The notes: generated by a model from the sequence alone, not told the origin. A stretch of DNA of 64,000 nt from Patescibacteria group bacterium (GCA_040389125.1 JAZKAN010000001.1:47398-111397); one strand, 5' to 3'; positions 2,679-61,638 are shown, counted from the stretch's first letter. Made by a program: numbers and translations.

Positions 2679-2687
2679 TGCTAAAAT
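2679..2687 (+). promoter_or_regulatory. Extended -10 box (TGcTAAAAT) 6 nt upstream of the trhO ATG; leaderless geometry
   Basis: TGc at 2679-2681, TAAAAT at 2682-2687, six T residues, then ATG at 2694. No SD. Confidence 0.5.
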
Positions 2688-2693
2688 TTTTTT

Positions 2694-3602
2694 ATGAATG
2701 AAATCTCGAATGAATCTGATACGGGTAATCCGTACACTATTATTCTTTTCTACAAATACACACACATAGAAAACCCAAATGAGTTTCGGGATGCTCAACG
2801 AAAACTGTGTGAAAAACTTGGACTTACTGGTCGTATTATTGTTGCTCACGAGGGTATAAACGCCACTCTTGAAGGAAAAACAGAAAATATTAATGCATAT
2901 CTGAATGAATTCCTGGGTGATTTGCGATTTGCTGATACTCATATTAAAAAAAGTAATGGAATTGGAACCGCATTTCCAAAATTATCAGTAAAATCTCGTC
3001 GAGAGATTGTTTCTCTGCATTTACACGAGGACTTTAGCCCGACAGAAGTGACCGGTGTGCATTTGAAGCCAGCTGATCTGAAACAATGGTTTAAAGATGG
3101 AAAAGATTTTGAAATAGTGGACATGCGAAATGACTACGAATACAGTATTGGCAGATTCAAGGGATCTGTACTACCCAAACTGCAGAATTTTCGAGACGTA
3201 CCCCGCGTTCTTTCTGAACTCGAACCACTTAAAGAAAAAACGGTAGTAGCTGTTTGCACGGGTGGTGTCAGATGTGAAAAGGCTTCTGGATTTCTCCTTA
3301 AAAATGGATTTAAAAATGTCTATCAACTCGATGGTGGAATTGTTTCGTACATGCAGGAATATCCAGGGCAGGAATTCGAGGGATCACTCTATGTTTTTGA
3401 TAAACGCATAACCATGAGTTTCGACAGTGACGAGCAACATATAGTGATCGGAACCTGTCAAAAATGCAACACCTCATCAGAGAGATACGTGAACTGCAAA
3501 TGGCCGGAATGCAATAAACATTTTATTTGTTGTGAAATTTGTTCAGAAAATGACGGAAAATCATTTTGTAGCGAAGGGTGTAAAGAAAAAATGATTATTT
3601 AA
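2694..3602 (+). CDS. trhO: Rhodanese-domain protein of the UPF0176/TrhO family (tRNA U34 hydroxylase-like)
   Basis: Rhodanese active-site loop CTGGVRCEKASGFL, and a Cys-rich C-terminal tail (CQKCN...CKWPECNKHFICCEICS...CSEGC) typical of TrhO/YceA. Confidence 0.75.
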   Translation: MNEISNESDTGNPYTIILFYKYTHIENPNEFRDAQRKLCEKLGLTGRIIVAHEGINATLEGKTENINAYLNEFLGDLRFADTHIKKSNGIGTAFPKLSVKSRREIVSLHLHEDFSPTEVTGVHLKPADLKQWFKDGKDFEIVDMRNDYEYSIGRFKGSVLPKLQNFRDVPRVLSELEPLKEKTVVAVCTGGVRCEKASGFLLKNGFKNVYQLDGGIVSYMQEYPGQEFEGSLYVFDKRITMSFDSDEQHIVIGTCQKCNTSSERYVNCKWPECNKHFICCEICSENDGKSFCSEGCKEKMII

Positions 3603-3633
3603 TATTAGTGTATTTAATTTGTTCGGCACCTTT

Positions 3634-4311
3634 ATGAAAAGAAATTTCCATTACTATTTTCCTCTTGTACTTCAGAAAATTGGTTATGTTATTTTTCTAA
3701 TATTACACGAGGTGTTTGTCAGATTAGAAATACGAGACACAGAAAATATACAAAATCTCACTTCTCCAATCATCCTTGCGACCAACCATACAAGCGAACT
3801 CGATGTAACCGCATTACCTCTCATTTTTCCAATGTTTTCAAAAATATTTCCCATTTATTTTGTCACAAACCAAACTGAAAAATATCGAACATTTGGATGG
3901 AGAAGCTATATATACGGGGGAGTTTTTTTTAACTGTCTGGGGGGATATGCAGTGTATTCCGGTCACAAGGACTATGCAATGTCGCTCGAGGATCATATAA
4001 AACTCCTAAAAAATGGCCAAACACTTTGGATTGCACCAGAAGGCAAGAGAACTCGTGATGGCAATATGAATCCCGCACGTGGTGGGCTAGGGTTTCTGGT
4101 CCATACAACTCAGGCGGTAGTTCTGCCCATTGCAATCAATACATTTTTCAATATGTCATTTTGGGATTTCATTACATTTAAAAGAAAAGTTGTTATTACT
4201 ATCGGAAAACCGATGAAACCCGGCGAAATAATAAACATAAACAACCCAACAGTTACTGATTTTCGAGAGGGAAGTCAGAGGGTATTGGATAGGATACACG
4301 GGATGATGTAA
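3634..4311 (+). CDS. 1-acyl-sn-glycerol-3-phosphate acyltransferase-like (PlsC family)
   Basis: HX4D acyltransferase motif NHTSELD, a later PEGKRTRDG block, and an N-terminal hydrophobic anchor. I chose ATG 3634 over the TTG 3619 in the track. Confidence 0.65.
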   Translation: MKRNFHYYFPLVLQKIGYVIFLILHEVFVRLEIRDTENIQNLTSPIILATNHTSELDVTALPLIFPMFSKIFPIYFVTNQTEKYRTFGWRSYIYGGVFFNCLGGYAVYSGHKDYAMSLEDHIKLLKNGQTLWIAPEGKRTRDGNMNPARGGLGFLVHTTQAVVLPIAINTFFNMSFWDFITFKRKVVITIGKPMKPGEIININNPTVTDFREGSQRVLDRIHGMM

Positions 4312-4344
4312 AAAAGTTCATGCTTTTTATTTTTGTATAAAAAA

Positions 4345-4387
4345 AGGCCGACGCGCTCCACACAATGTGAGAGACAAACGTCGGCCT
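4345..4387 (-). terminator. Hairpin terminator downstream of the 700-aa gene
   Basis: The 9-bp stem AGGCCGACG/CGTCGGCCT is followed on the minus strand by a T run (plus-strand A run at 4338-4345). The loop is long, about 25 nt. Confidence 0.55.
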
Positions 4388-4426
4388 GGCGGAGGGGTAT
4401 AGCGATATGTAATCTCCATATCCCTC

Positions 4427-6529
4427 CTAGTTTACTAACTGCTGCGACATTGTTTGAAAACGTGCTTGTTGTGAGTTATCGCTACCCACAGTACCTTCGA
4501 CACGTGTCGGTTCGGGATCGATTGCAGACGGTCCAGGAACAACAAAGTTGACCTGATACAATCCCGGAAATTCAGGAGAAAGTACGGCAACCACTTCCGT
4601 AGCCTGTCTCCCTCCAATAATGAGCGTCGGCTGAATCGTTGTGTAGCAGACCTTTCCAGGTGCCACACCAGCCTTTAACTCAGGGCAATTCGAGGTTCTG
4701 CCCAAACCAGTGACCCACAGTGTGTTATGGGTACCAAGAACGAGTGGGTTATCAGCTGTGATCAACTGATAATTTGAATCAGTCACAATTCCCAGATCGC
4801 CGTTCGGAAATACTCCGGGAGATGTGGAAAGTATCGTGACTTGTACACTATTTCCGAGAGTCCCATTGTAGACCACCTGAACCGTTGCGGTCCCAAGCGA
4901 AACATCAAAGGGAAACTGGAAGTTAATCTGTCTCGGTGACACATACAAAAGTGGCACACGGACCCCGTTCACTCGTACCTCCACACCCAGAAAACTGGTT
5001 GGGAGAGGTAGAGTTTTTACTTCGGAAGTACTTTCGCCAAGGTTCTGCCCATATATCGCAGCAAACATCCCAGGTGAAAGACTTTCGTCTCCAGAAGCAG
5101 CGTTTCGCACGCCACCTGTGAAGATCGTAGGTGCGGGAGGTAATACAACCTTTGGCGTGACCTTGACGGTTACCGTGCGGGAATCAATCCCACCGGGTCC
5201 GGTCGCGGTCAGCGTGTAGGGCGTAGTTGTAGTCGGGCAAACCGTGGTGGTTCCCGAGAGCTCAACATTGCCGACACCCTGATCGATTTGCACAGTTGTG
5301 GTGTTTAGTGTATTCCACCGAGCGATTGTGCACTCACCACTCGTAATCTCTGTTGAGTCGATGGTGAAAGAGTTAACAACCGGTGGAAATGCGATGACTG
5401 CACTATACACCTTGCTGAACTTACCAGTGGGATCCGTTTGTGAAAAATAGACCACACCTTTGTCAGACACCGTAGCAACAGCCTGACCAGCAATCTTGAA
5501 CGTGAATCCACCAGGAAGTGTCTGGCCAGTGCTCGCGAGTACCCATCTCTGTTTAGTTTCAACATCAATGAGCATTAGCTTTGCCCCGGGCGCAGACGAA
5601 GTGCTGATGAGAGCATATTTTTTTGAGAGGCCGAGAACAGATGCTGCATTTGTCCCAAACCCATCTGAGTTGTCGTAGATCTGGCTAAATGCACCAGATT
5701 TGTATACGCCAACCGAATTGGTGCCATGAAGGAGGAGTTTCTGGTCGTTAAACCAGTCAACCTCTAATCCGCAGCACTTCTCAGTCTTTCCACTGTAGAG
5801 CGTGCTCAAGACTCCATCTCGAGCAATAGCGATTTCGCTACTTACCCCATTTACAGGATCAATAGCAAGAATAACGCGAACGATGAACGATCCATCAGCC
5901 TGTTTCCAAGCCTCCGAGATCGGGACGGTCAGTTTTGCAACCTCGGTGAGGTCACATACTCCACCATTTGACTTTCCGAGCAAGTAAATGCTCGAAATAG
6001 TGCCGTCATTATCCACGAAATACTTTGTCCCGTCAGCAGAAGGATAGGCCCCGTACTGGTTTGACTTGAGGGATCCTGTAGGAAGTCTAAAACTTCCACA
6101 GACCTCGGGTACACCAGATTGAAGACTAGCTTGGACAAGAGAGTTTGTCACCCCGGTAACCTTAACTGCAGAATTGCGAGTGTAGGTGGTTGGAGAAAAA
6201 CTCGCCGTAGTGCCACTTTCTGGGTAGAACCCACCGAGTGACAGGATTGGGGTTGTTGCCCCAAAAGAAATCCCATTGAACGGAAATGCATTGTTATCTT
6301 TGAAATTTCCGTTAATGACCTGTAGCGGCGCCGTTGGCGACACTACTTGTTGTACCGTGAGCGCCCCAGAGGCATTTGTGCCTCCGAAAGCCCACAGTCG
6401 TCCATCAGACGATACCTTCAATCTGGTTATTAGCCAGGGTGAAGGAAATCCTCCAATGTCCTGAATTTGAACCTGCTGGGCAGATGCCCAGGAGGCGAAC
6501 ATGACAAGGAACATGCATAATCTGAGCAT
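4427..6529 (-). CDS. Secreted repeat protein with a TIGR03437-like (Soli_cterm) C-terminal domain; GC-rich, probably horizontally acquired
   Basis: Signal peptide MLRLCMFLVMFASWASAQQ. The C-terminal roughly 230 aa match the remembered TIGR03437 pattern (VRNAASGDESLSPGMFAAIYGQNL ... LLYVSPRQINFQFP ... SPGVFPNG ... LWVTGLG ... EFPGLYQVNFVVP). SD AGGAGGT lies 8 nt before the ATG. GC is well above the flanks. Confidence 0.8.
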   Translation of the reverse strand: MLRLCMFLVMFASWASAQQVQIQDIGGFPSPWLITRLKVSSDGRLWAFGGTNASGALTVQQVVSPTAPLQVINGNFKDNNAFPFNGISFGATTPILSLGGFYPESGTTASFSPTTYTRNSAVKVTGVTNSLVQASLQSGVPEVCGSFRLPTGSLKSNQYGAYPSADGTKYFVDNDGTISSIYLLGKSNGGVCDLTEVAKLTVPISEAWKQADGSFIVRVILAIDPVNGVSSEIAIARDGVLSTLYSGKTEKCCGLEVDWFNDQKLLLHGTNSVGVYKSGAFSQIYDNSDGFGTNAASVLGLSKKYALISTSSAPGAKLMLIDVETKQRWVLASTGQTLPGGFTFKIAGQAVATVSDKGVVYFSQTDPTGKFSKVYSAVIAFPPVVNSFTIDSTEITSGECTIARWNTLNTTTVQIDQGVGNVELSGTTTVCPTTTTPYTLTATGPGGIDSRTVTVKVTPKVVLPPAPTIFTGGVRNAASGDESLSPGMFAAIYGQNLGESTSEVKTLPLPTSFLGVEVRVNGVRVPLLYVSPRQINFQFPFDVSLGTATVQVVYNGTLGNSVQVTILSTSPGVFPNGDLGIVTDSNYQLITADNPLVLGTHNTLWVTGLGRTSNCPELKAGVAPGKVCYTTIQPTLIIGGRQATEVVAVLSPEFPGLYQVNFVVPGPSAIDPEPTRVEGTVGSDNSQQARFQTMSQQLVN

Positions 6530-6667
6530 GAAGCTAGACCTCCTGTGCCCATTATACCATAAATCATTATAAATTGGTAGTGAAGGCTAGGAACTTATAC
6601 ACACCCTCCTGGCCACATAATTTTATAATAGTATATTATATAGTAAACCTTATTCATTTTTATACAT

Positions 6668-12383: not shown

Positions 12384-12392
12384 TGGCATTAT
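12384..12392 (+). promoter_or_regulatory. Extended -10 box (TGgCATTAT) 6 nt upstream of the ATG; leaderless geometry
   Basis: TGg at 12384-12386, CATTAT at 12387-12392, CTCTCT, then ATG at 12399. Confidence 0.45.
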
Positions 12393-12398
12393 CTCTCT

Positions 12399-13100
12399 AT
12401 GCCACAGGAATCTAGTTGGGACAGGGAATATAGGAAATCGAAACTACTGACCAAGGAAAATAAGCCTCAAGCAGATGTAGTGCGTTTTTTGACTTTTATA
12501 ACACAGAAATCACATACTAAATATATTTTACCGAAAAACACATCTGTGCTTGATCTCGGCTCGGGAACAGGACGAAATTCATTTTATTTTACACAGCTCG
12601 GCGCGCATGTAATTGGATTTGAGTTTTCCCAAACTGCTATAGATATTGCACAGAAATACGCGAGGGATGCAGGGCTGACGATCAACTATCAGAAACGAAG
12701 TATTGGAGCAAAATTTCCTCTTGATTCTGAATCGGTTGATATCGCACTTGATGTAACTAGTTCCAACTCTCTAACACAAACAGAACGTGAACTATTTCTT
12801 TCTGAAACTCACAGAGTATTAAAACACGATGGATATTTCTTTACAAAAGCACTGTGCAAAGATGGAGATGAGAATGCAAAATATCTTTTGAAACATTCTC
12901 CCGGTCCAGAAAATGATACATACATTTTACCAGATATTGGTGTGTTTGAACGAGTATGGAGTAAAAGTGATTTTATAAACACCTATGAGAAATATTTTAA
13001 GATAGTAAACCTCGAAAAGAAAACGAGCTACTCACGTATGAATGACCGTGTATACAAACGAAATTTTTGGATTGTATATATGCAAAAAAGTAGTATGTAG
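12399..13100 (+). CDS. SAM-dependent methyltransferase (class I)
   Basis: Motif I VLDLGSGTGRNS, followed by an acidic post-I residue pattern. Confidence 0.7.
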   Translation: MPQESSWDREYRKSKLLTKENKPQADVVRFLTFITQKSHTKYILPKNTSVLDLGSGTGRNSFYFTQLGAHVIGFEFSQTAIDIAQKYARDAGLTINYQKRSIGAKFPLDSESVDIALDVTSSNSLTQTERELFLSETHRVLKHDGYFFTKALCKDGDENAKYLLKHSPGPENDTYILPDIGVFERVWSKSDFINTYEKYFKIVNLEKKTSYSRMNDRVYKRNFWIVYMQKSSM

Positions 13101-13121: not shown

Positions 13122-13130
13122 TGCTAGTAT
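13122..13130 (+). promoter_or_regulatory. Extended -10 box (TGcTAGTAT) 6 nt upstream of the trpS ATG
   Basis: TGc at 13122-13124, TAGTAT at 13125-13130, GAAGAT, then ATG at 13137. Confidence 0.5.
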
Positions 13131-13136
13131 GAAGAT

Positions 13137-14117
13137 ATGAATAAAAAAACCTTACTTTCTGGTGTTAAACCAACTGGACGTCCGCATATTGGAAACTATT
13201 TTGGTGCCATGAAGCAGTTTGTGGATATGCAAAATGACTACAATGCTATCTATATGATTGTAGACTATCATGCACTCAATTTTATTCAGAATAAAGAGGA
13301 TATGTCGAGAAATATTCTTGACCTCGCACTAGACTATCTCGCTCTGGGACTTGACCCTCAGAAATCAATTATTTTCAAACAATCTGATGTTTCCGAGCAT
13401 GCAGAGCTTGCCTGGATTTTCGACACTATCACAACCATGCCGTACCTCATGCGAGCACATGCATACAAAGACGCTGAGGCAAAGAATAAAGAAATAAGTG
13501 TAGGAGCATTTAACTACCCAATGCTTATGGCTGCAGATATTTTGCTCTATGACACAGATATTGTTCCGGTGGGACAGGATCAAAAACAGCATGTCGAATA
13601 TGCACGTGATACCGCACAGAAATTTAATTTCACATTTAGAGCCGATACATTCAAACTGCCAGATGTGCAGATACTAGAAGAGGTAGCAGTCGTGCCTGGC
13701 ACAGACGGCCGCAAAATGTCTAAAAGCTACGGAAATACTATTCCGCTTTTCGCTACCACGGAGGAAATTACAAAAGCAGTCATGTCGATAGCTACGGATT
13801 CAAAGGGAATTAACGAATCCCGAAATCCAGAGGAGGACAACGTATTCAAACTGCACAAACTATTTTCAAATCCAGGCGAACTTGCAGAGCTACAAGAAAA
13901 ATATGAAAAAGGTGGAATCGGTCACAAGGAATCGAAAGAAATTTTGATTAAAAATATTGATGCATTTATTGCACCACTCCGTGACAAACGAGCAAAACTT
14001 GCAGATGATACCGACTATGTCCTCGATGTTTTGCGAGACGGAGGTAAACGAGCTAAATTAAAAGCAGAAAAGAAAATGGGGGCGGTACGAGAGGCGATTG
14101 GAGTGAAGTTGTATTAA
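13137..14117 (+). CDS. trpS: Tryptophanyl-tRNA synthetase
   Basis: Class I HIGH-type motif (TGRPHIGNYFGA), KMSKS present, and length typical of TrpRS. Confidence 0.93.
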   Translation: MNKKTLLSGVKPTGRPHIGNYFGAMKQFVDMQNDYNAIYMIVDYHALNFIQNKEDMSRNILDLALDYLALGLDPQKSIIFKQSDVSEHAELAWIFDTITTMPYLMRAHAYKDAEAKNKEISVGAFNYPMLMAADILLYDTDIVPVGQDQKQHVEYARDTAQKFNFTFRADTFKLPDVQILEEVAVVPGTDGRKMSKSYGNTIPLFATTEEITKAVMSIATDSKGINESRNPEEDNVFKLHKLFSNPGELAELQEKYEKGGIGHKESKEILIKNIDAFIAPLRDKRAKLADDTDYVLDVLRDGGKRAKLKAEKKMGAVREAIGVKLY

Positions 14118-14418: not shown

Positions 14419-14427
14419 TGCTATGAT
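14419..14427 (+). promoter_or_regulatory. Extended -10 box (TGcTATGAT) 6 nt upstream of the aspS ATG
   Basis: TGc at 14419-14421, TATGAT at 14422-14427, TTTTTT, then ATG at 14434. Confidence 0.5.
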
Positions 14428-14433
14428 TTTTTT

Positions 14434-15723
14434 ATGAAACGAATTTATACAAAAGATATTAAAGAACATGTCGGAAAGGAGATTGTAGTTGCTGGGTTTG
14501 TCCATACCTTACGCGTACAAAGTAAAATAATTTTCTTGTTAGTGAGAGATGTCATGGGCATTATCCAAACTGTAATCGAGGCCTCAAGTCCTGCATTTGA
14601 AACTGCAAAAGGACTTTCACATGAGTCAGTAGTCAAAATTACAGGTACAGTAAAATCTGCTCCGCAGGCGCCAGGTGGTTTTGAAATAAATGTCTCAAGT
14701 ATTGAAGTACTTTCCGTAGCTAATCCAGAGTTACCAATTCCTGTTATTACAAAAGGTGATGAAGAGACGGAAATGCCAACTCGTCTAGACTATCGCTGGA
14801 TAGATTTACGAAAACCTGAAAAAACAAAGGTGTTCAAGGTCTGGACTGAACTCGAAAAGGGGTTTAGAAAGTACTGGGATGAAAATAATTTTATCCAGAT
14901 TTACACCCCATCCATGATTCCGACCCAATCCGAATCTGGGTCAGAAGTTTTTACAGTAAACTATTTTGACCGTAAGGCATACCTTGCACAGTCTCCACAA
15001 TTCTACAAACAAATGGGAATTGCCTCTGGATTTGAAAAAGTGTTTATGGTTGGACCCGTATTTCGTGCTGAGCCTTCATTTACCGCACGTCATCAAACAG
15101 AGTTTACTGGATGGGATTTTGAGATGGGATATATTGACTCACATACGGACGTCATGGACAACGAGGAAGGTATGATTGTCTCCGGATTTGAACAGCTTCT
15201 TAAAACCTTCCCTGAACTCGATATCACTGTGCCCACTCGTCCATTTCCGCGATTTACAATGATAGAAGCCAAAGAAAAATTGAAAACACTTGGTGTTGAA
15301 AGTAGCGAGGATCATGACCTGTCACCAGAAGAAGAACGTGCAATTTGTGATTATGTTAAAAAGGAAATGAATCATGAATTTGTATTTATTACTGAATACC
15401 ACAAATCAAAGAGTGCTTTCTATCATATGCGACTGACACCGGATAGTGATAGATCACGCCGTGCAGACCTACTATACCGTGGAATTGAAATTACGACTCT
15501 TGCACAGCGTGAGCATCGTCCAGAAATTCTAAAAAAACAGGCTCTTGAAAAGGAAATGTCACTTGAACCACTCAAGGACTACATTAACTTCTTCACATAC
15601 GGTTGTCCTCCACACGGTGGTGCGGGTATTGGACCAGGACGCATTATTATGAAAATTCTCGGATTACAAAATATTCGAGAGGTTACATATATACCACGCG
15701 ATGTAAAAAGACTTAATCCATAG
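14434..15723 (+). CDS. aspS: Aspartyl-tRNA synthetase, short archaeal/eukaryal type (possibly non-discriminating)
   Basis: N-terminal OB anticodon-binding domain. Class II motifs FRAEPSFTARHQTEFTGWDFEM and GGAGIGPGRIIM. The 429-aa length is typical of the archaeal-type enzyme. An Asn specificity cannot be fully excluded. Confidence 0.8.
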   Translation: MKRIYTKDIKEHVGKEIVVAGFVHTLRVQSKIIFLLVRDVMGIIQTVIEASSPAFETAKGLSHESVVKITGTVKSAPQAPGGFEINVSSIEVLSVANPELPIPVITKGDEETEMPTRLDYRWIDLRKPEKTKVFKVWTELEKGFRKYWDENNFIQIYTPSMIPTQSESGSEVFTVNYFDRKAYLAQSPQFYKQMGIASGFEKVFMVGPVFRAEPSFTARHQTEFTGWDFEMGYIDSHTDVMDNEEGMIVSGFEQLLKTFPELDITVPTRPFPRFTMIEAKEKLKTLGVESSEDHDLSPEEERAICDYVKKEMNHEFVFITEYHKSKSAFYHMRLTPDSDRSRRADLLYRGIEITTLAQREHRPEILKKQALEKEMSLEPLKDYINFFTYGCPPHGGAGIGPGRIIMKILGLQNIREVTYIPRDVKRLNP

Positions 15724-15757: not shown

Positions 15758-15886
15758 AGGGACGGGGAGTTTTTCAGTCCCTCGCGACAGTCACACCATA
15801 ATAATCAGGGGGTTGGGACCGTTTCTAGTATCAACATTAACACCAACAAATTTCTTTGTCTGGGCTTTTTGTGTATAATAGATTTC

Positions 15887-16618
15887 ATGGACAACCCACT
15901 CCTCGCTGTCAAAACACATATTTTTGAAGGGCCACTCGACACTCTCCTGTCACTTATTGAGAAACGAAAACTGTTTATAAACGACATATCACTTGCACAG
16001 GTAGCAGACGACTACATCGCGTATATCAAAAGTCTTGATGATTTTCCAATTAGCGATTCTGCACATTTTATTCTAATCGCCTCCACGCTCGTCCTGATTA
16101 AATCCAAATCTCTTCTTCCGACACTCTCACTGACAGAGGATGAGCAACACAGCATCGAGGATTTGGAGGCACGACTGGTAGAATATCAAAAATACAAAAC
16201 ACTCAGCGTGCATCTAAAAGAGCGATTTGGAATCACAACAGAATATCTCCGCCTACCATCACGAGAAAAAACGATCGTATTTACTCCTGACACGCAGACA
16301 ACTGTTTCCAAACTACACGAAACAATATTGTCGGTCATAACTCAAATTCCAAAAAAGGAATTTGTACCTACTGCAGTGGTCAAGAAAATAATATCGCTTG
16401 AGGAGACAATCGAAAACCTGACGAAACGTATCACAGCAGGACTCAAAATGAGTTTCAAGGACTTTGCTGGAATGGGCCGGGAGGACAAAGTAACCGTGAT
16501 TGTCAGTTTTCTGGCTATGCTTGAACTTGTAAAACAGGGTATTATACTAGTACGACAGGACAAGGATTTTCATGACATCGAAATGGAAACGCATGCAGTG
16601 GGAGTACCAAGATATTGA
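15887..16618 (+). CDS. scpA: Segregation and condensation protein A
   Basis: N-terminal FEGPLDTLLSLIEKRKLFINDISLAQVADDYIAYI is the ScpA signature region. The gene is followed by scpB. TATAAT (15874-15879) lies 7 nt before ATG 15887. Confidence 0.85.
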   Translation: MDNPLLAVKTHIFEGPLDTLLSLIEKRKLFINDISLAQVADDYIAYIKSLDDFPISDSAHFILIASTLVLIKSKSLLPTLSLTEDEQHSIEDLEARLVEYQKYKTLSVHLKERFGITTEYLRLPSREKTIVFTPDTQTTVSKLHETILSVITQIPKKEFVPTAVVKKIISLEETIENLTKRITAGLKMSFKDFAGMGREDKVTVIVSFLAMLELVKQGIILVRQDKDFHDIEMETHAVGVPRY

Positions 16619-18119: not shown

Positions 18120-18194
18120 TTACTTATTTGTGATGAAGAATAGATTCTCGTATCCACATCTCGCATTTGGCCGAGTATGTTGTATACTCTCATT

Positions 18195-42328: not shown

Positions 42329-42334
42329 AGCTTC

Positions 42335-43672: not shown

Positions 43673-44764
43673 TTAGAGCCCTTCTTTTTTCAGCATCTCA
43701 ACTGCCTTTTTAGCATCCTTTGAAAGTTTTTTTGGAATGAGAATGTGGAGTTTGATCAGGAGGTCACCGCGTTTGTTTTTGTCATACGGCACACCCTTGC
43801 CTTTGATACGCAGAATCTCCCCTATTGCGACTCCCTCGGGAATTTTGACTTTGATCTCGCCGTCGAGAGTGGTCACCGGCTGGTCTGCGCCGAGAAGTGC
43901 GTCGGAAAGTTTGACGTTTAAATCCATGACCAGATTGCTACCATCCTTTTTAAAGAGCGGATGTTTCTTGACGTAAATTTTGATATACAGATCGCCAGAC
44001 TGTCCGCCGGACATTGCTTCGCCACCACCGGTCAGTCGGATCATTTCACCATTGTCGATACCAGCTGGAATTTGGACTTTGATTTCGCTTTCTTTTTTGT
44101 ATACACCTGCACCGTGACATGTGTGGCATTTTACTTTTGGAATTTTGCCGGTGCCATGACAGTGTTCACATGTTGCTGTGGTTTCAAACTGTCCAAAAAA
44201 TGTTTTCTTGACTTCACGAATCTGTCCACGACCGTTACAAATTTCACACGTCATCATCTCACTACCTTTTTCGCCTCCTGTTCCACCACACGTATCACAT
44301 TTTGAAATTTTATTCAGAAGTATTGTACGCTCAACACCGAAAATAGATTCCTCGAACGACAGCTCGATATCAATCGAAATATCACGTCCACGTTTTGCCT
44401 GTGTGCGACGTCCACCACCGAACACATCACCAAAGATGTCACCGAGGTCAAACTCCATGCCGTTCCCACTGCCACCCTGTGTAAACTGAGAAAAGTCGAA
44501 ATCCCCGAACCCGCCGAAACCACCTCCCTGGGCTCCAGAAGCCCCGCCGCTACCCGTAAATGCCCTGCCATACGTATCATACTCCGCACGTTTTTTGTCG
44601 TCAGAGAGCACAGAATACGCCTCATTTATTTCCTTGAATTTCGCATCATCACCGCCCTTTTTGTCAGGATGGTATTTGTGCGCGAGGGTACGAAAGGCCT
44701 TTTTTATCTCCTCCTTACTCGCCTTTTTATCTACGCCCAATGATTCATAATAGTCTTTTGCCAT
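43673..44764 (-). CDS. dnaJ: Chaperone DnaJ
   Basis: J domain with HPD (KYHPDKK), a G/F region, and four CxxCxGxG zinc motifs. TATAAT (44772-44777) lies 7 nt before ATG 44764. Confidence 0.93.
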
Positions 44765-44849
44765 ATGCAATATTATACTTTTTTTTGACCGTGTGGGTAC
44801 TTGACTATACTTTTAATATTATGTATTGTGATGAATAGGAGACAGTAGA

Positions 44850-48058: not shown

Positions 48059-48664
48059 TTACTTCTCAATATGCGTAACACGTACTTTCGGCGCCCGTAT
48101 TTCTTTTCCATTTAGCTCATACCCGAGCTGGACTACCTCCTGTATCTTTCCATCCTCTGACTCGTCTGTTGTTGGTATATTTTCAATCGCATCATCCCTC
48201 ACTGCATTATACAACTCACCTACTGGATTTATTACCTTGAGTCCGTGGTTTCCGAGTATTGTCATGAGTTGTGAATGTATGTACTCGACACCCACTCGCC
48301 AGTTTTTATCTACTTTTTCCCATGCTTCTTTATTTTTAAACGCAGATTCAAATGAATCGAGAATAGGCAAAAGTTCCGTGATCGTATCCTCTTTTGCAAA
48401 TTTCAAAAATTCTTTTCTCTCGCTCTCATCCTTTTTTCGAAGGTTTATGAAATCCGCTTTGTCTCTCTGCCACGAGTCGAGAAGCTCTGTATTTTTCTTC
48501 TCAAGCTCCTTGATCCGAGCCTTAAGTTTTTCCACCTTTGCTTTGTAATCCCCTCCTGTCACCTCTGTATTATCCTCCAACACAAAATCATCCCCAGCAT
48601 CGGTATCCACCTCGGGTTCTGGTGCCTGGTTTTCTATTTTCTCATCTTCATTAGTATCATTCAT
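48059..48664 (-). CDS. grpE: Nucleotide exchange factor GrpE
   Basis: Acidic N-terminus, a long coiled coil, and a C-terminal beta domain (GKIQEVVQLGYELNGKEIRAPKVRV). TATAAT (48672-48677) lies 7 nt before ATG 48664. Confidence 0.9.
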   Translation of the reverse strand: MNDTNEDEKIENQAPEPEVDTDAGDDFVLEDNTEVTGGDYKAKVEKLKARIKELEKKNTELLDSWQRDKADFINLRKKDESERKEFLKFAKEDTITELLPILDSFESAFKNKEAWEKVDKNWRVGVEYIHSQLMTILGNHGLKVINPVGELYNAVRDDAIENIPTTDESEDGKIQEVVQLGYELNGKEIRAPKVRVTHIEK

Positions 48665-48746
48665 GCGCAAAATTATACATTATTTTTAACTTTTCTAAAA
48701 TTGACAAAAATATAATTAATGAGATATTGTAGTATAGGAGGGAAAA

Positions 48747-49478: not shown

Positions 49479-49623
49479 ATCGTGCCAAGTCTTTTAACGT
49501 ACCACCGTATTTTTCAATAGCAAAATTAATACCATTCTCGACTTTAGTGTCCAGTTCTTCTTTTTTATCATGCTCTCTTTTTTTATTATTATCAGAGAAC
49601 CAACTTTGGATTAATTTTTTCAT
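49450..49623 (-). CDS. Putative antitoxin (57 aa, not in the ORF track)
   Basis: Hand translation gives MKKLIQSWFSDNNKKREHDKKEELDTKVENGINFAIEKYGGTLKDLARYDRGEKLIH*. It overlaps the doc start by 29 nt and is preceded by a TTGTCA-17-TAGAAT-7-ATG promoter. Confidence 0.5.
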   Translation of the reverse strand: MKKLIQSWFSDNNKKREHDKKEELDTKVENGINFAIEKYGGTLKDLARYDRGEKLIH

Positions 49624-49630
49624 CCCTTAC

Positions 49631-49659
49631 ATTCTACACAAATTTACATGATTTGACAA
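49631..49659 (-). promoter_or_regulatory. Promoter TTGTCA-17-TAGAAT, with the -10 box 7 nt before the antitoxin ATG
   Basis: Read on the minus strand: TTGTCA (49659-49654), a 17-nt spacer, TAGAAT (49636-49631), GTAAGGG, then ATG at 49623. Confidence 0.6.
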
Positions 49660-50155: not shown

Positions 50156-50500
50156 TTATTCTGTAATAATTAAATTGTTCATCATTTTCTGTCGCAACTT
50201 GTTTTTAGGTAGCATACCTGAAACTGCCTCTTTAAACAACTCACTGTATCCTTTTTTCTCGATAACCTGCTCCATAGTTGGTTGTTTGAGTCCTCCTGGG
50301 TATCCTGAATATCTGCTGTATGTTTTTACAGAAAGTTTCTTTTCATCAATATCCGCCTTTGATGTATTTTTGATTTCAACAGTTACATCTGGAATATTGT
50401 TACGAGCAAAACCTGGAGTATTTTTACCCATGAGATATACAGCTGCATCTGATGCAACTCGTCCGATTTTTTTGTTTTCTGCGTCTAGTACGTATTTCAT
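50156..50500 (-). CDS. rplM: 50S ribosomal protein L13 (short form)
   Basis: MKYVLDAENKKIGRVASDAAVYLMGK... and YSGYPGGLK. Start set at ATG 50500, because the upstream part of the track ORF overlaps rplQ. Confidence 0.88.
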   Translation of the reverse strand: MKYVLDAENKKIGRVASDAAVYLMGKNTPGFARNNIPDVTVEIKNTSKADIDEKKLSVKTYSRYSGYPGGLKQPTMEQVIEKKGYSELFKEAVSGMLPKNKLRQKMMNNLIITE

Positions 50501-50510
50501 AATATTTAAA

Positions 50511-50858
50511 TTATACAAACTCAATAACAGCCATGAGACTTCCGTCTGAAATTCTGCGAGGCAATTTCGTAATGCGAGTATAACCTCCCTTTCGGTCCAT
50601 GTATTTTGGAGCAACTTCTTTTACGATTTTCTCTGCAGCGATCGCTCCCACCTCTGCGATGAGTTTGCGTCGTGCTGCTACAGTTCCTGCGCGACCCGTA
50701 GTCACCATTTTCTCGATCATTGGACGGAGTTCACGTGCCTTGGCATCTGTAGTCTGGATTTTGCCAGATACGACAAGTGCGAGTGCGAGGGATTTCATAA
50801 GTCCATCTCGTACTTTCTTTACTCGTCCAAATTTTCTTGTTGTTTTGTGGTGATTCAT
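50511..50858 (-). CDS. rplQ: 50S ribosomal protein L17
   Basis: RKFGRVKKVRDGLMKSLALALV...TTDAKARELRPMIEKMVT, in its position after rpoA. Confidence 0.9.
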   Translation of the reverse strand: MNHHKTTRKFGRVKKVRDGLMKSLALALVVSGKIQTTDAKARELRPMIEKMVTTGRAGTVAARRKLIAEVGAIAAEKIVKEVAPKYMDRKGGYTRITKLPRRISDGSLMAVIEFV

Positions 50859-56145: not shown

Positions 56146-57366
56146 TTATTGCTTCCTAATTTTGTTGTAAAACACAGCGAGGATTCCTATGAATTCGTCG
56201 GATTGCACACGGGGGTTGTTTTTGAACATTTGCGAGAGCATTTCTGTGTTCAGGTGCATGATGTTTGCGTGATATCGAAACAGCGAGGTGGTATCGTTTT
56301 TTGGAAATTTGAGAAACTCAGTGTAGAGCTGTGCCACATCATCATCGGCAGTAATGTACACTTTGGATGGTAGGGACATTTTAGGAGACAGTTCGAGCAG
56401 AGCATTTTCGAGATAAATAGCCCATTCCCTCTCTATATCATCCAAAATTTTCTGCATATCCTGCTCCACTTCATCATCCCCTTTTCGTGATGACCATAGA
56501 TGAAACATGGACTCCGCGATTTCAGGAGAAACTCCGAGCGCTTTTGCAATCTGACGAATGACAAAATTTCGGCCCGATGGAAATGTTGCAGTTTGAACTA
56601 TTACATCATTTTGAACAAGAGTAATATCTGTTGCCTCTCCAGCCACATCCATAATCAGAAAATCTGTTTCATTTACAAAAATTTCTTTGATCGTTCCAAA
56701 TGAAACTACAGGAAATGTATGAACAATCATGTGATCCTTTGGAATATGTGAATTCGAAAAAATAATATCAGTTATTTTGTCTGATATTACTTTTGCAACC
56801 ACTGACAAACAAACATACGCATCAAATACTTTTGTTTTCTTTCCAATCACGTCACGAATTGCATATCCATTTATTTTGCTGTGCACAATCGCTTTTTCTA
56901 CAACCTCTAGTTGTCCATTAAACGCACCTCCATATTCAGTTGCCCTCATTTCTTGCTGAAACATTTTTGACTCTTCTTCAATCACATCTACTATAAATTT
57001 CTCTGTGATGATAAATGCGTTTTCCTGTGTCAAATGAATATGTTTTGTTTTCGACACATACCATGGTGATGAAAATGCGAGAAGTGCATTTCGCAAATGT
57101 TTTTTCTTTCCCTTCCAATATGGATCTTCAAATCCTCGAAGCATAGCCTCTTTAAGTAAATCAGTAAGTAGTGTACACGTACCCGATAGGAGTTGTGCCT
57201 CATCCAGTTTTTCTGACATGACAAACGGCAATCGGTTGGTATAGAGGACATACGGATTTGATTCAGGTCTAAATAGGACAAATGCGAGAGCAATGCTTCC
57301 ATTGCCAATATCTATCATGAGCGAGACTTCTTCGTGTGTGTCATCAAAAATCGAGAAAAGTGACAT
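56146..57366 (-). CDS. Actin-like ATPase of the FtsA/PilM type
   Basis: Phosphate-1-like MIDIGNGSIALAF and a later LIMDVAGEATDITLV (phosphate-2/adenosine-like). TGaTATTAT lies 6 nt before ATG 57366. Confidence 0.55.
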   Translation of the reverse strand: MSLFSIFDDTHEEVSLMIDIGNGSIALAFVLFRPESNPYVLYTNRLPFVMSEKLDEAQLLSGTCTLLTDLLKEAMLRGFEDPYWKGKKKHLRNALLAFSSPWYVSKTKHIHLTQENAFIITEKFIVDVIEEESKMFQQEMRATEYGGAFNGQLEVVEKAIVHSKINGYAIRDVIGKKTKVFDAYVCLSVVAKVISDKITDIIFSNSHIPKDHMIVHTFPVVSFGTIKEIFVNETDFLIMDVAGEATDITLVQNDVIVQTATFPSGRNFVIRQIAKALGVSPEIAESMFHLWSSRKGDDEVEQDMQKILDDIEREWAIYLENALLELSPKMSLPSKVYITADDDVAQLYTEFLKFPKNDTTSLFRYHANIMHLNTEMLSQMFKNNPRVQSDEFIGILAVFYNKIRKQ

Positions 57367-57403
57367 GTAAATATAATATCACAAAATTATATTTACATAC
57401 GAA

Positions 57404-57813: not shown

Positions 57814-59628
57814 TCAATCCAACACAGCTTTGATCCTGCGAACCCCAGCAGAAACCGCTTCCTCTTTTATAATTTTGAAATGTCCCAACACTTCCGTATT
57901 TGCAACATGCGGTCCGCCACAAAATTCTTTTGAAAATGCATTTTCCATGGTATCCCCAATAAAATAAATACTCACCTCCTCCCCATATTTATCTCCAAAG
58001 AAATGTCGTGCACCAGTTTTCATTGCGTCATCTTTTTTCATAATAACCATTTGCACGGGCAGTCTCTCATGAATTTTTTCATTTATAATATCTTCCACTT
58101 TTTTCTTTTCTTCGTCGGTCATTTTCATATCATGTGCAAAATCAAATCGAAGTCGCTCCGATGTTATGTTACTTCCCTTTTGTGATACATGCTCACCGAG
58201 TACATCATGTAATGCCTGATGTAACAAATGCGTTGCAGTGTGATATTTTGTTTCCATTTCGCCTGTACTTCCAAGTCCTCCTTTAAATTTCTGCTCGCTA
58301 CCAGCACGTGAGAGTTCCTGATGTTTTGTCAGTTCCTCGTGGAATCCATGCTCATCCACTGCATACCCCTTTTCCTGTGCAAGCTCGCGAGTCAGTTCAA
58401 ATGGAAAACCGTATGTTGAAAATAGCAAAAATGCGTCTGGTCCAGATATTTTCTTGCTTTTATATGCAAATGTTCCACCATGAGTCATTTTTTCGAATTC
58501 TCGCATTCCGCTATCGAGTGTTTTTCGGAATTTTCTCTCCTCATCCTCGAGCACCACAGAAATATTATTTTTCTTTATACGAATATCATCATACACACCT
58601 GCATATGTTTCAATAATGTACGGAATAAATGATGTCAGGAATTCAGGGTGGAGTCCCATGTTGTCTGCATGACGGACAGCACGACGAATGAGTCGTCGCA
58701 ATATATACCCGCGATCAGTGTTCGACGGCATGACACCATCTGCAATCATAAACACCGATGTGCGTACGTGGTCTGCCACAATACGTTCAGAACGAATATT
58801 TTCCCGTGTTGCATGTTCACGAATATGCCCAATGAGTGGTGCGAATAAATCTGTATCAAATATGTTTGTCTTGCCTTGGACTGCCATGACAACACGTTCA
58901 AGTCCCGAACCGGTGTCAACATTTTTAGAATCCAGTTTTCCTACGACCTGACCATCCGATTTGAGATATTCCATGAACACGTCATTCCAAATCTCGACGA
59001 TTTTCTGTTCATCATCAGCTTGCATGTATTCAGTTAAATTCATTCCATTACGAAGTTCACCAGTAATATCGTAAAACATTTCTGTATCGGGACCGCATGG
59101 GCCATTGTCACCCACACTCCACCAGTTTTTTGATGCTGGCCTAAAATAGATTCTCTCCCCTGCCACATTATTTTTCTCAAATATCTCTCTCCAAATTCCA
59201 GATGACTCCTCGTCTCGTGGAGCATTTTCGTCACCAGCAAAACAGGTTACGTAGAGTCGTTGTGGGTTGAGTCCAAGCCCCTCTGTCGGCGATGTTAGGA
59301 ATTCGTAACTCCATTCGATTGCCTCTCGTTTGAAATAGTCGCCGAGTGACCAGTTACCGAGCATTTCAAAAAACGTGTCATGTGTATTGTCGCCCACTTC
59401 ATCAATATCCACTGTTCGAACGCATTTCTGAGAGTTTGCGAGGCGTGTTCCCTGTGGATGCTTTTCTCCTAGGAGGTACGGCACGAGCGGCTGCATGCCG
59501 GCTGTATTGAACAGCACAGATGGATCATTTTCTGGCACAAGTGGTGCAGATGGAATAATAGCGTGCCCACGCTTTTCAAAAAAAGCGAGGAATCGTCTAC
59601 GAATTTCCTGAGATGTCATTGGGTTCAT
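57814..59628 (-). CDS. alaS: Alanyl-tRNA synthetase, C-terminally short form
   Basis: N-terminal FLAFFEKRGHAIIPSAPLVPENDPSVLFNTAGMQ and editing-domain HxxxH (TATHLLHQALH) with CGGPHV. It ends at about 604 aa, without the usual C-Ala/DHHA1-like extension. Confidence 0.9.
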   Translation of the reverse strand: MNPMTSQEIRRRFLAFFEKRGHAIIPSAPLVPENDPSVLFNTAGMQPLVPYLLGEKHPQGTRLANSQKCVRTVDIDEVGDNTHDTFFEMLGNWSLGDYFKREAIEWSYEFLTSPTEGLGLNPQRLYVTCFAGDENAPRDEESSGIWREIFEKNNVAGERIYFRPASKNWWSVGDNGPCGPDTEMFYDITGELRNGMNLTEYMQADDEQKIVEIWNDVFMEYLKSDGQVVGKLDSKNVDTGSGLERVVMAVQGKTNIFDTDLFAPLIGHIREHATRENIRSERIVADHVRTSVFMIADGVMPSNTDRGYILRRLIRRAVRHADNMGLHPEFLTSFIPYIIETYAGVYDDIRIKKNNISVVLEDEERKFRKTLDSGMREFEKMTHGGTFAYKSKKISGPDAFLLFSTYGFPFELTRELAQEKGYAVDEHGFHEELTKHQELSRAGSEQKFKGGLGSTGEMETKYHTATHLLHQALHDVLGEHVSQKGSNITSERLRFDFAHDMKMTDEEKKKVEDIINEKIHERLPVQMVIMKKDDAMKTGARHFFGDKYGEEVSIYFIGDTMENAFSKEFCGGPHVANTEVLGHFKIIKEEAVSAGVRRIKAVLD

Positions 59629-59664
59629 ATTATATATACTGCCACAAAATGAAGAAAACGAAAA

Positions 59665-59696
59665 CCCCTCCTACCCGGCGATCGGAGTAGGAGGGG
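59665..59696 (-). terminator. Intrinsic terminator overlapping the 3' end of the 112-aa gene
   Basis: 10-bp stem CCCCTCCTAC/GTAGGAGGGG, followed on the minus strand by TTTTCGTTTTCTTCATTTT. Confidence 0.7.
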
Positions 59697-60009
59697 TCTG
59701 AATTCGTCTGCATAGTGCATGAGTTAGCACCCAGTAGTGCCTTGGATTTCTCCTCCAATCCTCTCGAGTGCTTTTCTGCAGTTGATCCAGAAGTTCTTCA
59801 TGAGAAAATCTGTCTTGAAGCCACTTGACCATCATTTCCCGACAATAATTCAATTTTTGTCGGGAAATTTTTTGCTCATTCAGATACTTTCGTACCTCAA
59901 CGATCTTACTCTCCTTGAACTTCGCATCTTGAATGCTTGTTCCAGGAAAATTTCCTTTCACTAAAATCGGCTTTGCAGAACGAATGCACACCACCTCGCA
60001 TTTACCCAT
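59671..60009 (-). CDS. Hypothetical protein (GC-rich orphan)
   Basis: A 112-aa ORF with SD GGGAGG about 8 nt upstream and its own terminator. No motif recognised. Confidence 0.4.
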   Translation of the reverse strand: MGKCEVVCIRSAKPILVKGNFPGTSIQDAKFKESKIVEVRKYLNEQKISRQKLNYCREMMVKWLQDRFSHEELLDQLQKSTREDWRRNPRHYWVLTHALCRRIQTPPTPIAG

Positions 60010-60072
60010 CCCGAGAACCTCCCGTCTAAAATTCTATACCCTTAATTTTAAATTGTCGAATGTGTGAGTCGG

Positions 60073-60684
60073 TTACGAAATATATTTCTTTAGTACCTGA
60101 AAATCCTGAAGGAGTGTCTGTTTCGTTCCACCATTATATAGTGCAACTGCAGGGTGGTAGAGTGGTACGATATCCACCTTTCCGTAGCTCGCCTGTGCTG
60201 TAAATTCCTTGCCGTGCATTTCTCCAATCGGTCCGAGCTTATCATCAATACCCATTTGCGTCATGATGTACTCCATCGCAAACCGTCCGAGAGTCGCAAT
60301 AACTTTCGGTTGTATTATCTCAATCTGCCTATCGAGAAATGGTGTATATAACTTTATTTCAGCTGGTGTAGGATCGCGGTTCTCAGGTGGACGATCCTTT
60401 ACTACGTTTGTGATATACACGTCCTTGCGATCGAGACCAATAGAAGCGATCATTTCATCCAAAAGTTTCCCAGAGCGTCCACAAAACGGCCGTGCAGTTT
60501 CTGCCTCTGTTTTTCCCGGTGCCTCGCCAATGAACATGATCTGTGCAGTATGACTCCCCTCACCCACCACAGGAAAATACTTATTTTCCAATCGGTATTT
60601 ATACAAAGGAGATTTTTTAAACTCGAGCAATTCATCTCGAATTTCTTTCATTTTTTCATAACGCTGCTCCGGTGAAAGTGACAT
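60073..60684 (-). CDS. Uracil-DNA glycosylase, family 4
   Basis: IMFIGEAPGKTEAETARPFCGRSGKLL (GEAPG motif) and a C-terminal HPA-type block (LYHPAVALY). Confidence 0.87.
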   Translation of the reverse strand: MSLSPEQRYEKMKEIRDELLEFKKSPLYKYRLENKYFPVVGEGSHTAQIMFIGEAPGKTEAETARPFCGRSGKLLDEMIASIGLDRKDVYITNVVKDRPPENRDPTPAEIKLYTPFLDRQIEIIQPKVIATLGRFAMEYIMTQMGIDDKLGPIGEMHGKEFTAQASYGKVDIVPLYHPAVALYNGGTKQTLLQDFQVLKKYIS

Positions 60685-60749
60685 ACTTAAAATAAAATTA
60701 TTTCTTATTCTTCTCCTTTTTAGCTTGTGATTTTTTCATAATGCAATAC

Positions 60750-61598
60750 TTACAATGTTGCGATTTCGTCAATAACTCTTTTTGATGTTTCATCATCCAC
60801 TCCTATTGATGCAAGTAGGTCAGGATTTTCTGTGATTGTTTTACAGAGAACAACACCCTTATCCAAAAGTAGTTTTTTGTGAATACCATCGAGTGCAGTC
60901 AGACATGTCAGCGGATGTAGTTTTGCCTCAAGTATCATGTCGTGCAAGTTGCCATGCGGTGGATAGTTCCAGCCAATCATGACGAGTCCACCCTGGCACG
61001 ATCCGTATTCAATCGCCGTACTCGTAAATTTAGTGTTTGTTACGAGCCATCCTTCGTCGAGATCGCGTTCTGCACCACCTTGCTTTGCACCATACTTAAA
61101 TTTCATTTGTCGTAAATCATCAAACCGAGCCTTAACATACAATGCGATTTTCAAATCCGATCGAATACCGAGCTGGTTGTGAAATTTGGCCTCCACCATG
61201 ATCAGTTTCTTTTCATTCCACGCGACAACATCCACTTCATGCTCAACACAAAACCCTCGCACAATCTGCCCTGTGATCGCCTCATAGCCTTTGTATTTAA
61301 AAATTTCTGCAATGAAATCCTCAAACGGAAATCCCGATGGACCCAAATCCATCACTGCGCGTTTGATGGAGTATTTGATTGCAGTAGGACGATTATCCCG
61401 ATGAAGTAATGCAAACGCATGCGTGTATATTTCATGTGTGGTGATTCCATCTTTCATGGTTTCGCTCAGCGTGGACAATATCTCCTCGACCTCTTTTGTA
61501 CTCGCACCTGCACGTTTGAGCGAAAACTCTAATTTTTTTGTATCAAAAAATTCTTTCTTCCCGTCCGATTTTGTAACATATATTGGTTCTGTATTCAT
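60750..61598 (-). CDS. ATP-cone domain fused to an Mrr/PD-(D/E)xK-type restriction endonuclease-like domain
   Basis: N-terminal VTKSDGKKEFFDTKKLEFSLKRAG (ATP-cone start). The centre has FEDFIAEIFKYKGY...HEVDVVAW...LIMVEAKF (D...ExK nuclease core). TGcGATAAT lies 6 nt before ATG 61598. Confidence 0.65.
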   Translation of the reverse strand: MNTEPIYVTKSDGKKEFFDTKKLEFSLKRAGASTKEVEEILSTLSETMKDGITTHEIYTHAFALLHRDNRPTAIKYSIKRAVMDLGPSGFPFEDFIAEIFKYKGYEAITGQIVRGFCVEHEVDVVAWNEKKLIMVEAKFHNQLGIRSDLKIALYVKARFDDLRQMKFKYGAKQGGAERDLDEGWLVTNTKFTSTAIEYGSCQGGLVMIGWNYPPHGNLHDMILEAKLHPLTCLTALDGIHKKLLLDKGVVLCKTITENPDLLASIGVDDETSKRVIDEIATL

Positions 61599-61638
61599 AG
61601 GAGAATTATCGCATAAACATGTAGCCCAAACAACACAC

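Follow-up and report, generated by a model that had tools for sequence, protein, structure and literature searches.

How do messenger RNAs begin in a bacterium whose genes carry what looks like a promoter element almost on top of the start codon, with no Shine–Dalgarno (SD) sequence in between? The question is raised by a 64,000-nt stretch of DNA from a Patescibacteria group bacterium (GCA_040389125.1 JAZKAN010000001.1:47398-111397; hereafter the window), in which a first-pass annotation had pointed out, at 15 genes, a hexamer resembling the -10 promoter element that ends 6-7 nt before the ATG, and had proposed that leaderless mRNAs are the default here. We consider it likely, judging from sequence statistics and conservation, that many native promoter-proximal genes yield mRNAs that start at the ATG, or at most 3 nt before it, from sigma70-type -10 elements. 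The hexamers do behave as -10 elements at a fitting distance; that transcription would start at the A of the ATG or right beside it is what we infer from their position.

Distance between -10-like hexamers and start codons

All 15 quoted hexamers, with their spacings of 6 or 7 nt to the ATG (Table 1), are present exactly as written, and the TGn extension is found at the 6 of 15 sites for which it was claimed. At every site the -10 element ends within the ~6-8 nt before the start codon that mark bacterial leaderless mRNAs, and every start codon is ATG, in keeping with the AUG start of such mRNAs. The observation that a purine-rich SD is missing also holds, as 6-7 nt leave no room for one and no SD motif is seen; the spacers of dinB (AGGGGA) and of the antitoxin gene (GTAAGGG) are G-rich, but abut the ATG and are thus too close to it to serve as an SD.

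The simplest alternative is chance, in that A/T-rich upstream regions would yield TAnnnT hexamers in any case and fitting ATGs would then have been picked. The 20 nt upstream of starts are indeed ~78% A+T, several of the listed hexamers share no more than 4 of 6 positions with TATAAT, and at 5 of the 15 genes a longer open reading frame (ORF) was passed over in favor of the start that fitted. The enrichment was measured on 61 genes called by a codon-usage heuristic, with the first ATG of each ORF taken as its start, a rule that is blind to the motif. Under this rule, 11 of the 61 genes have a hexamer with a match of at least 5/6 to TATAAT ending 6-7 nt upstream, compared with an average of 2.3 at other pairs of offsets; shuffled upstream regions average 1.85 such genes (maximum 8 in 2000 shuffles), and the Poisson p for 11/61 is 3e-5. 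A looser match of at least 4/6 gives 20 of the same genes against 7.1 expected, and once starts are curated, a hexamer at 6-7 nt is seen at 25 of 66 genes, against 7.8 at control offsets. A further test that dispenses with gene calls, and records the distance from TGnTAnnAT or TATAAT to an ATG opening an ORF of at least 100 codons, shows a peak for TGnTAnnAT in the window (4 at 6 nt, none at 7 nt), and no peak for permuted or reverse-complement control motifs. As a control from another organism, 70 annotated E. coli genes that include the homologous rpsM-rpoA cluster have no -10-like hexamer at 6-7 nt.

The same peak recurs in two independent sets of related loci, together ~1.15 Mb from Zambryskibacteria-like organisms: 26 AspS loci from species-representative genomes (L002-L027; 293 kb) and 80 metagenome RpoA loci (L028-L107; 862 kb) with 63-86% RpoA identity. 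Distances from TGnTAnnAT to ATG number 16 at 6 nt and 11 at 7 nt in the AspS loci, compared with ~1 elsewhere, and 22 at 6 nt and 7 at 7 nt in the RpoA loci, where a second peak of 13 lies at 9 nt; for TATAAT the counts in related loci are 35, 13, 10 and 14 at 6, 7, 8 and 9 nt, compared with ~3. Homology among the related loci led us to score them by gene family as well. The resulting ortholog frequencies (Table 1) can be set against control offsets of 12-35 nt, at which 3-7% of orthologs have a hexamer. The bases between hexamer and ATG vary among genomes, while TGnTAnnAT and the spacing persist, and in the ftsA-like and ATP-cone orthologs no upstream position is more conserved than the G at -14. 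Chance is thus refuted by the offset, shuffle and ortholog controls and retains hardly any probability; in addition, ten of the 15 genes offer no start codon earlier than the ATG. The layout is a trait of the lineage rather than of this window alone.

Two variations among the relatives deserve mention. In five of them (L014-L018), scpA starts with GTG in place of ATG, and a perfect TATAAT ends exactly 6 nt before it; their transcripts are candidates for leaderless mRNAs initiated at GUG. Mycobacterial leaderless mRNAs mostly begin with AUG, but tolerate GUG as the 5'-terminal codon. Among five more distant Parcubacteria (L021-L025; ~52% AspS identity), four (L022-L025) have TATAAT 14 nt before the aspS ATG, with an A/T-rich spacer and no SD. 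Since these distant loci place the element at 14 nt, the spacing regime differs between Parcubacteria lineages, and the leaderless trait is not uniform across them.

The strength of the spacing argument depends in part on which ATG is the start. At ten of the 15 sites (ATG at 2694, 12399, 13137, 14434, 27834, 42335, 39633, 49623, 57366 and 61598), the ATG is the first start codon of its ORF after the upstream in-frame stop, so no choice is open. At the remaining five (asnB, dnaJ, grpE, scpA and dinB), a downstream ATG was preferred over a longer ORF, and three of these choices are independently backed. A class-II (Ntn) amidotransferase needs Cys2 as its N-terminal nucleophile; AsnB must therefore begin with M-C, and all 9 orthologs begin MCGI. 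For DnaJ, the J-domain runs from residue 4, orthologs begin MAKDYY, and an independent gene call gives a protein of 363 aa; GrpE orthologs begin at the equivalent residue. The shorter N-termini that had been proposed for AsnB, DnaJ and GrpE are thus right, the downstream start of ScpA is plausible, and that of DinB is one of three candidates. A similar case outside the original list is rplM, whose product uL13 starts ~12 residues later than that of E. coli, in line with the short uL13 N-terminus described in Parcubacteria (Tsurumaki et al. 2022, PMC9297842). Taking the longest ORF misplaces the start of asnB, dnaJ, grpE and rplM (to TTG at 50614 in the case of rplM), and probably that of scpA as well.

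RNA polymerase or ribosome as reader of the motif

A conserved signal at a fixed distance from the start codon could also be read by the ribosome rather than by RNA polymerase, as a non-SD translation signal on leadered mRNAs like that of the GeneMarkS-2 group B genomes. In favor of such a signal, native genes here lack an SD and so would need another one, and genes less than 40 nt behind an upstream gene, even those at most 10 nt behind it, show an excess of hexamers at 6-7 nt (10-12% compared with ~1%). The sequence around the hexamers, however, has the marks of a promoter. The TGn extension and the -35 element are contacts of RNA polymerase, and both are enriched 3-8 fold at the 6-7 nt sites. 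Among unit-first genes (those that open a transcription unit), TGn precedes 34% of hexamers at 6-7 nt and 7% at other offsets, and a -35 TTG with a 16-18 nt spacer accompanies 20% and 9%, respectively; among genes 11-39 nt behind a same-strand gene, the corresponding values are 31% and 4% for TGn, and 20% and 3.5% for the -35 TTG. Near-consensus -35 elements at 16-17 nt are found for the TIR gene (TTGACT), the antitoxin gene (TTGTCA) and the gene at 40136 (TTGACA). The consensus itself is that of the Pribnow box: when the upstream regions of 560 unit-first genes were searched de novo by Gibbs sampling, a weak but Pribnow-like TAwAAw emerged, with a modal position of 6 nt, and no SD, while the same sampling on 60 window genes alone gives no clear motif. 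A generic sigma70 two-hexamer scan returns 54 hits compared with 43 +/- 7 in shuffles, barely above expectation, and is useless as a detector here because the -35 boxes are weak.

The hexamer is, moreover, missing at ten tightly coupled internal genes (10764, 16631, 17151, 20053, 21111, 23868, 25009, 41515, 42913 and 49478), and dnaK, rpoA and infA orthologs are at control level. Part of the excess at gaps of at most 10 nt is explained by TAA stop codons of the upstream gene, which fall at that offset. We therefore regard a translation signal as distinctly improbable.

In the reading that we prefer, the hexamers would be sigma70-type -10 elements, often extended (TGnTAnnAT) and paired with a weak -35. 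RNA polymerase, starting ~7 nt after the -10, would begin on the A of the ATG when the spacing is 6 nt, and at that A or one base before it when the spacing is 7 nt, so that a large share of native promoter-proximal mRNAs would be leaderless or have a leader of at most 3 nt. Translation would proceed without contact between SD and anti-SD; presumably ribosomes and initiator tRNA bind the 5'-terminal AUG directly, as in the leaderless mRNAs of other bacteria. Downstream genes mostly abut or overlap their neighbors or have A/U-rich leaders, and a small GC-richer, non-syntenic set of genes keeps the combination of -10, short leader and GGAGG.

A subtler alternative accepts the -10 boxes as real but holds that the main transcripts are leadered or polycistronic and come from further upstream, leaderless mRNAs being minor or conditional and most translation resulting from SD-independent internal initiation or re-initiation. 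Many sites do lie only 17-75 nt behind a same-strand gene, there are few convincing terminators (15 candidates in the window compared with 13.8 expected), and SD-free internal initiation evidently works here, as at rpoA and dnaK. On the other hand, the exact 6-7 nt spacing is kept across relatives with 50-85% protein identity, and because it is conserved so exactly, selection appears to act on the relation between -10 and ATG, beyond mere promoter proximity. There is also no closer promoter for genes that follow long gaps (aspS, 316 nt; dnaJ, 346 nt; grpE, 364 nt) or that have a divergent neighbor (the ATP-cone gene). This alternative thus seems unlikely to us, although less so than a ribosomal signal.

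Several points nevertheless weigh against leaderless initiation, or narrow its reach. A number of the listed hexamers are weak (CATTAT, CATAAT, GATAAT and TAATAT), and most -35 elements are poor; the listed genes could also be transcribed from promoters further upstream; and the hexamer excess extends to genes at most 10 nt from the upstream gene, where TGn is scarce (12%). Raw counts across related loci are not independent, and ~12 independent gene families carry the signal. The strong GGAGG found at optimal spacing in a minority of genes suggests that an anti-SD may still be present. Finally, dnaK, rpoA, rpsD, rpsM and infA have neither a correctly spaced -10 nor an SD, so leaderless initiation is not the whole story of SD-free translation.

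Frequency of the layout and genes with Shine–Dalgarno sequences

Manual sorting of the ~45 transcription-unit-first genes in the window (64 kb of genome) places a -10 at 5-7 nt in about 17-20 of them, or roughly 40-45% of transcription units, and at 8-11 nt in about 5 (rplM, rpsM, 9620, 36221 and 29293); about 8 have a short leader without an SD, and 7-9 are SD-led. In the relatives, a hexamer of at least 5/6 is seen at 6-7 nt in 16.4% of 560 unit-first genes, compared with 2.8% in the control, and at 5-10 nt in 28%, compared with 8.1%; the excess over background amounts to 14-20% of unit-first genes under the conservative first-ATG rule. Since that rule often picks the wrong start, these percentages are minimum values. 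The leaderless layout thus outnumbers every other class and accounts for most native unit-first genes, yet it is not universal, and to call it the default, as had been done, overstates its share.

Beyond the 15 listed genes, the layout is found at alaS and at a 335-aa hypothetical gene (Table 1). Directly upstream of the alaS -10 lies a strong intrinsic-terminator hairpin (59662-59699, minus strand), whose 15-bp stem includes 8 G-C pairs and has a T-run behind it; elsewhere, terminator-like sites are no commoner than in shuffled sequence. The dnaK gene (45111-47072, minus strand), in contrast, was rejected as a leaderless case: TATAAT at 3 nt or CATTAT at 6 nt precedes its well-supported ATG, but 40 orthologs show no -10 at that distance. 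The dnaK starts in those 40 loci lack both an SD and a -10 at 6-7 nt; what precedes them is A/T-rich sequence with T as its last base (-1).

SD use was assessed at 833 ortholog-anchored starts from 28 conserved families by the presence of GGAG, GAGG or AGGA at -16 to -4; this test, together with an E. coli control, replaced a motif-to-start histogram for SD words, which was too noisy owing to in-frame internal starts. An SD 4-mer is present at 2.6% of the 833 starts and at 6.5% in a control window further upstream, compared with 70% and 6% for 70 E. coli genes, and the 20 nt before the orthologous starts are 78% A+T and 10% G. The internal genes reported in the first-pass annotation to lack an SD (scpB, rpoA, rpsD, rpsK and rpsM) lack it in the window and across the clade, and native genes of the clade, including rpoA, rpsD, rpsK, rpsM, rplQ, rpsI, infA and dnaK, do not use an SD. 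Same-strand neighbors often abut or overlap, with +1, +4 and -4 as the commonest gaps, an arrangement compatible with coupled re-initiation.

The SD-led minority, which the first-pass annotation missed, comprises 7-9 window genes: 6529(-), 31787(-), 31888(+), 38351(+), 56080(-), 60009(-) and 61690(+), and perhaps 57771(-) and 22768(+). Their -10 box lies 20-32 nt upstream of the start codon, their leader measures ~14 nt, and a strong SD of the GGAGG type is placed 5-9 nt ahead of the start. These genes differ from the others in composition, with a mean third-position GC content (GC3) of 0.48 (range 0.44-0.58) compared with 0.34 (0.26-0.45) in the leaderless-type set (Mann-Whitney p 1.6e-4), and all three TTG starts of the window fall among them. 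No syntenic orthologs of the SD-led genes are found in the ~100 related loci, even where the flanks are covered. Genes with a -10 and GGAGG do occur sporadically in the relatives, ~30 in 1.2 Mb compared with roughly 0.4-5 by chance on a rough estimate. Two of the SD-led genes, one of the radical-SAM type and the other the inositol-phosphatase gene, form a pair at 30984-34098. The SD-led genes were probably imported.

Table 1. Upstream elements of genes in the window. Numbers within motifs are nt between elements or to the start codon; percentages are orthologs with a -10-like hexamer at the stated distance.
Gene	Upstream layout	Positions	Strand	Remarks
trhO (UPF0176/rhodanese)	TGcTAAAAT-6-ATG	2679..2696	+	first start codon of ORF
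SAM methyltransferase	TGgCATTAT-6-ATG	12384..12401	+	upstream gene ends only 21 nt before
trpS	TGcTAGTAT-6-ATG	13122..13139	+	18 orthologs: 72% at 6-7 nt, mostly TGn; 22% at 8-10 nt
aspS (archaeal-type, 429 aa)	TGcTATGAT-6-ATG	14419..14436	+	20% at 6-7 nt, 53% at 8-10 nt
scpA	TATAAT-7-ATG	15874..15889	+	45% at 6-7 nt, 25% at 8-10 nt; several GTG 6 nt after TATAAT
asnB	TATACT-6-ATG	18183..18197	+	MCGIAG N-terminus; 9/9 orthologs start MCGI
165-aa protein without family match	TAATAT-6-ATG (also TATAAT-8)	27820..27836	+	67% at 6-7 nt
ThsB-type TIR gene	TTGACT-16-CATAAT-6-ATG	42301..42337	+	
dinB	TATAAT-6-ATG	37829..37843	-	one of three candidate starts
NTP_transf_6 nucleotidyltransferase	TATAAT-6-ATG	39631..39645	-	
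dnaJ	TATAAT-7-ATG	44762..44777	-	23% at 6-7 nt, 34% at 8-10 nt
grpE	TATAAT-7-ATG	48662..48677	-	25% at 6-7 nt, 38% at 8-10 nt
57-aa ORF (antitoxin) upstream of Fic/Doc gene	TTGTCA-17-TAGAAT-7-ATG	49621..49659	-	
ftsA-like	TGaTATTAT-6-ATG	57364..57381	-	75% at 6-7 nt, with TGnTAnAAT at exactly 6 nt
ATP-cone/Mrr-type nuclease	TGcGATAAT-6-ATG	61596..61613	-	80% at 6-7 nt
alaS (not in first-pass annotation)	TAATAT-7 / TATAAT-9-ATG	59617..59634	-	59% at 6-7 nt
335-aa hypothetical gene (not in first-pass annotation)	TATAGT-6-ATG	30920..30934	-	
rplM	TATAAT-9-ATG	50498..50515 (gene 50156-50500)	-	predicted leader 2-3 nt; short uL13 N-terminus
700-aa gene	TATAAT-21-ATG, AGGAGG 9 nt before ATG	6527..6556 (4427-6556)	-	SD-led; GC3 0.47
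inositol-monophosphatase-family gene	AGGAGG-7-TTG	31785..31817 (30984-31817)	-	SD-led; GC3 0.58
SD-led gene	TAGAAT-21-ATG, GGAGG 8 nt before ATG	60007..60036 (59671-60036)	-	
ABC transporter gene	TGaTATAAT-20-TTG, AGGA 6 nt before start	61664..61692 (61664-63510)	+	SD-led
further SD-led gene		31851-34098	+	
further SD-led gene		38313-38998	+	
further SD-led gene		55712-56106	-	

Known systems, host lineage and neighboring genes

The closest described arrangement is GeneMarkS-2 group C, where the first genes of operons have a Pribnow box at 6-8 nt from their start codons and 25-50% of operons are predicted to be leaderless; it is frequent in Actinobacteria and Deinococcus-Thermus, with ~40% of M. 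tuberculosis operons predicted leaderless (Lomsadze et al. 2018, PMC6028130). The localization of the Pribnow box in the window and its relatives is the same, a likeness that we draw from motif layout. However, the remaining genes of group C carry an SD, whereas here SD words occur at 2.6% of native starts and a strong SD only at the 7-9 atypical window genes; and group C is typified by high-GC actinobacteria, while the present case is a clade with 40% GC and an extended (TGn) -10. Leaderless transcriptomes have been mapped in M. tuberculosis, M. smegmatis, Deinococcus deserti (167/262 mapped genes), Streptomyces and Corynebacterium (cited in PMC6028130). They share with our loci a -10 ~7 nt upstream of the start codon, but rest on differential RNA sequencing and proteomics, where our case is made from sequence statistics and conservation. 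Group B (Bacteroidota-type) has a non-SD motif before all genes that cannot be a promoter (PMC6028130). It shares with our clade SD-independent initiation and A/T-rich upstream regions, and may fit the native genes here that are not leaderless (dnaK, rpoA and rpsM); the motif described above is instead a Pribnow box with TGn and -35, missing from ten tightly coupled internal genes.

A second line of comparison is the ribosome of Parcubacteria. The 16S 3' sequence CCTCCT is present in only 48% of them, some are inferred to form no SD helix, and those lacking the anti-SD overlap the group lacking uL1 (Tsurumaki et al. 2022, PMC9297842). These organisms belong to the same superphylum-level group as our host, and the SD-free native genes described here would be the mRNA-side counterpart; that study makes no mention of leaderless mRNAs or of a replacement for the SD. 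A minority of genes here has a strong GGAGG. Full-text literature searches found no paper describing leaderless mRNAs in the candidate phyla radiation (CPR), Patescibacteria, Parcubacteria or Saccharibacteria, the matches being to leaderless secretion, to GeneMarkS-2 citations or to YchF, and what we describe is thus a known mode of gene expression in a lineage for which we found no report of it. The only CPR organism found with mapped transcription starts is the Saccharibacterium Nanosynbacter lyticus.

We put forward, as a possible but doubtful extension, that Zambryskibacteria and their neighbors have dropped SD-guided initiation for native genes in favor of gene-by-gene extended -10 promoters 6-7 nt before the AUG, many of them within or just behind the preceding gene, with SDs only on recent imports. 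If so, this would supply a concrete replacement for the anti-SD (perhaps also uL1) loss reported in Parcubacteria, and leaderless initiation would be how ribosomes mainly enter mRNAs across a large, as yet uncultured portion of the bacterial tree. Apart from this extension, the results suggest that the SD is replaced by leaderless starts together with tightly coupled or A/U-rich internal starts. The phenomenon is well known in Actinobacteria, Deinococcus and archaea and the mechanism is familiar; the use of the finding lies in annotation and in CPR genetics: SD-based start calling in CPR genomes will be biased, an expression cassette of the form TGnTAnAAT-6-ATG without a ribosome-binding site suggests itself for Patescibacteria, and the SD-led, GC-richer layout offers a simple marker of recent imports as well as a test of anti-SD function.

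The AspS relatives found in one-genome-per-species contigs are metagenome-assembled genomes labelled Parcubacteria, Candidatus Zambryskibacteria, Nomurabacteria or Paceibacterota (best identity 84%), and because of this the host is placed near Candidatus Zambryskibacteria within the CPR (Patescibacteria). The only exact copy of the dnaK-dnaJ segment is on a Logan contig of 9.7 kb. The window, with a GC content of 40%, contains no tRNA, rRNA or other detectable RNA at the Rfam gathering threshold and does not include the rplK-rplA region, and 16S/23S conserved motifs are absent from all 107 related loci (L001-L107). The gene labels of the first-pass annotation were confirmed by Pfam matches, which back TrhO-type UPF0176/rhodanese, SAM methyltransferase, TrpRS, the archaeal-type AspRS (429 aa), ScpA, AsnB, DinB, the NTP_transf_6 nucleotidyltransferase, the ThsB-TIR protein, DnaJ, GrpE, a distant FtsA-like protein and the ATP-cone/Mrr nuclease.

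Several of these genes lie in unusual surroundings. Positions 34174-43602 are lower in GC (0.28-0.38 for most genes) and resemble a mobile or defense island, with a tyrosine integrase, a cupin, DinB, a ClpP-like protein, the NTP_transf_6 nucleotidyltransferase, and a Dcm-type methylase with an R.HinP1I-family endonuclease; in it, the ThsB-type TIR gene overlaps the gene for a 229-aa partner without a family match in precomputed Pfam annotation. The 528 bp between grpE and a 101-aa ORF upstream of dnaK (47531-48058) contain no credible ORF and are not conserved in relatives, and hrcA, the usual neighbor of grpE, is not at this place; the ORF-free gaps around dnaK and grpE gave no Rfam match even at E<=1, and blastn and tblastx were also empty. 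A Fic/Doc-family gene following the overlapping 57-aa ORF (49029-49659, minus strand) forms a pair inserted between grpE and the rplM-rpsI genes that is absent from related loci. The AlaRS encoded at 57814-59619 (minus strand) is only 601 aa long and ends with the second additional domain.

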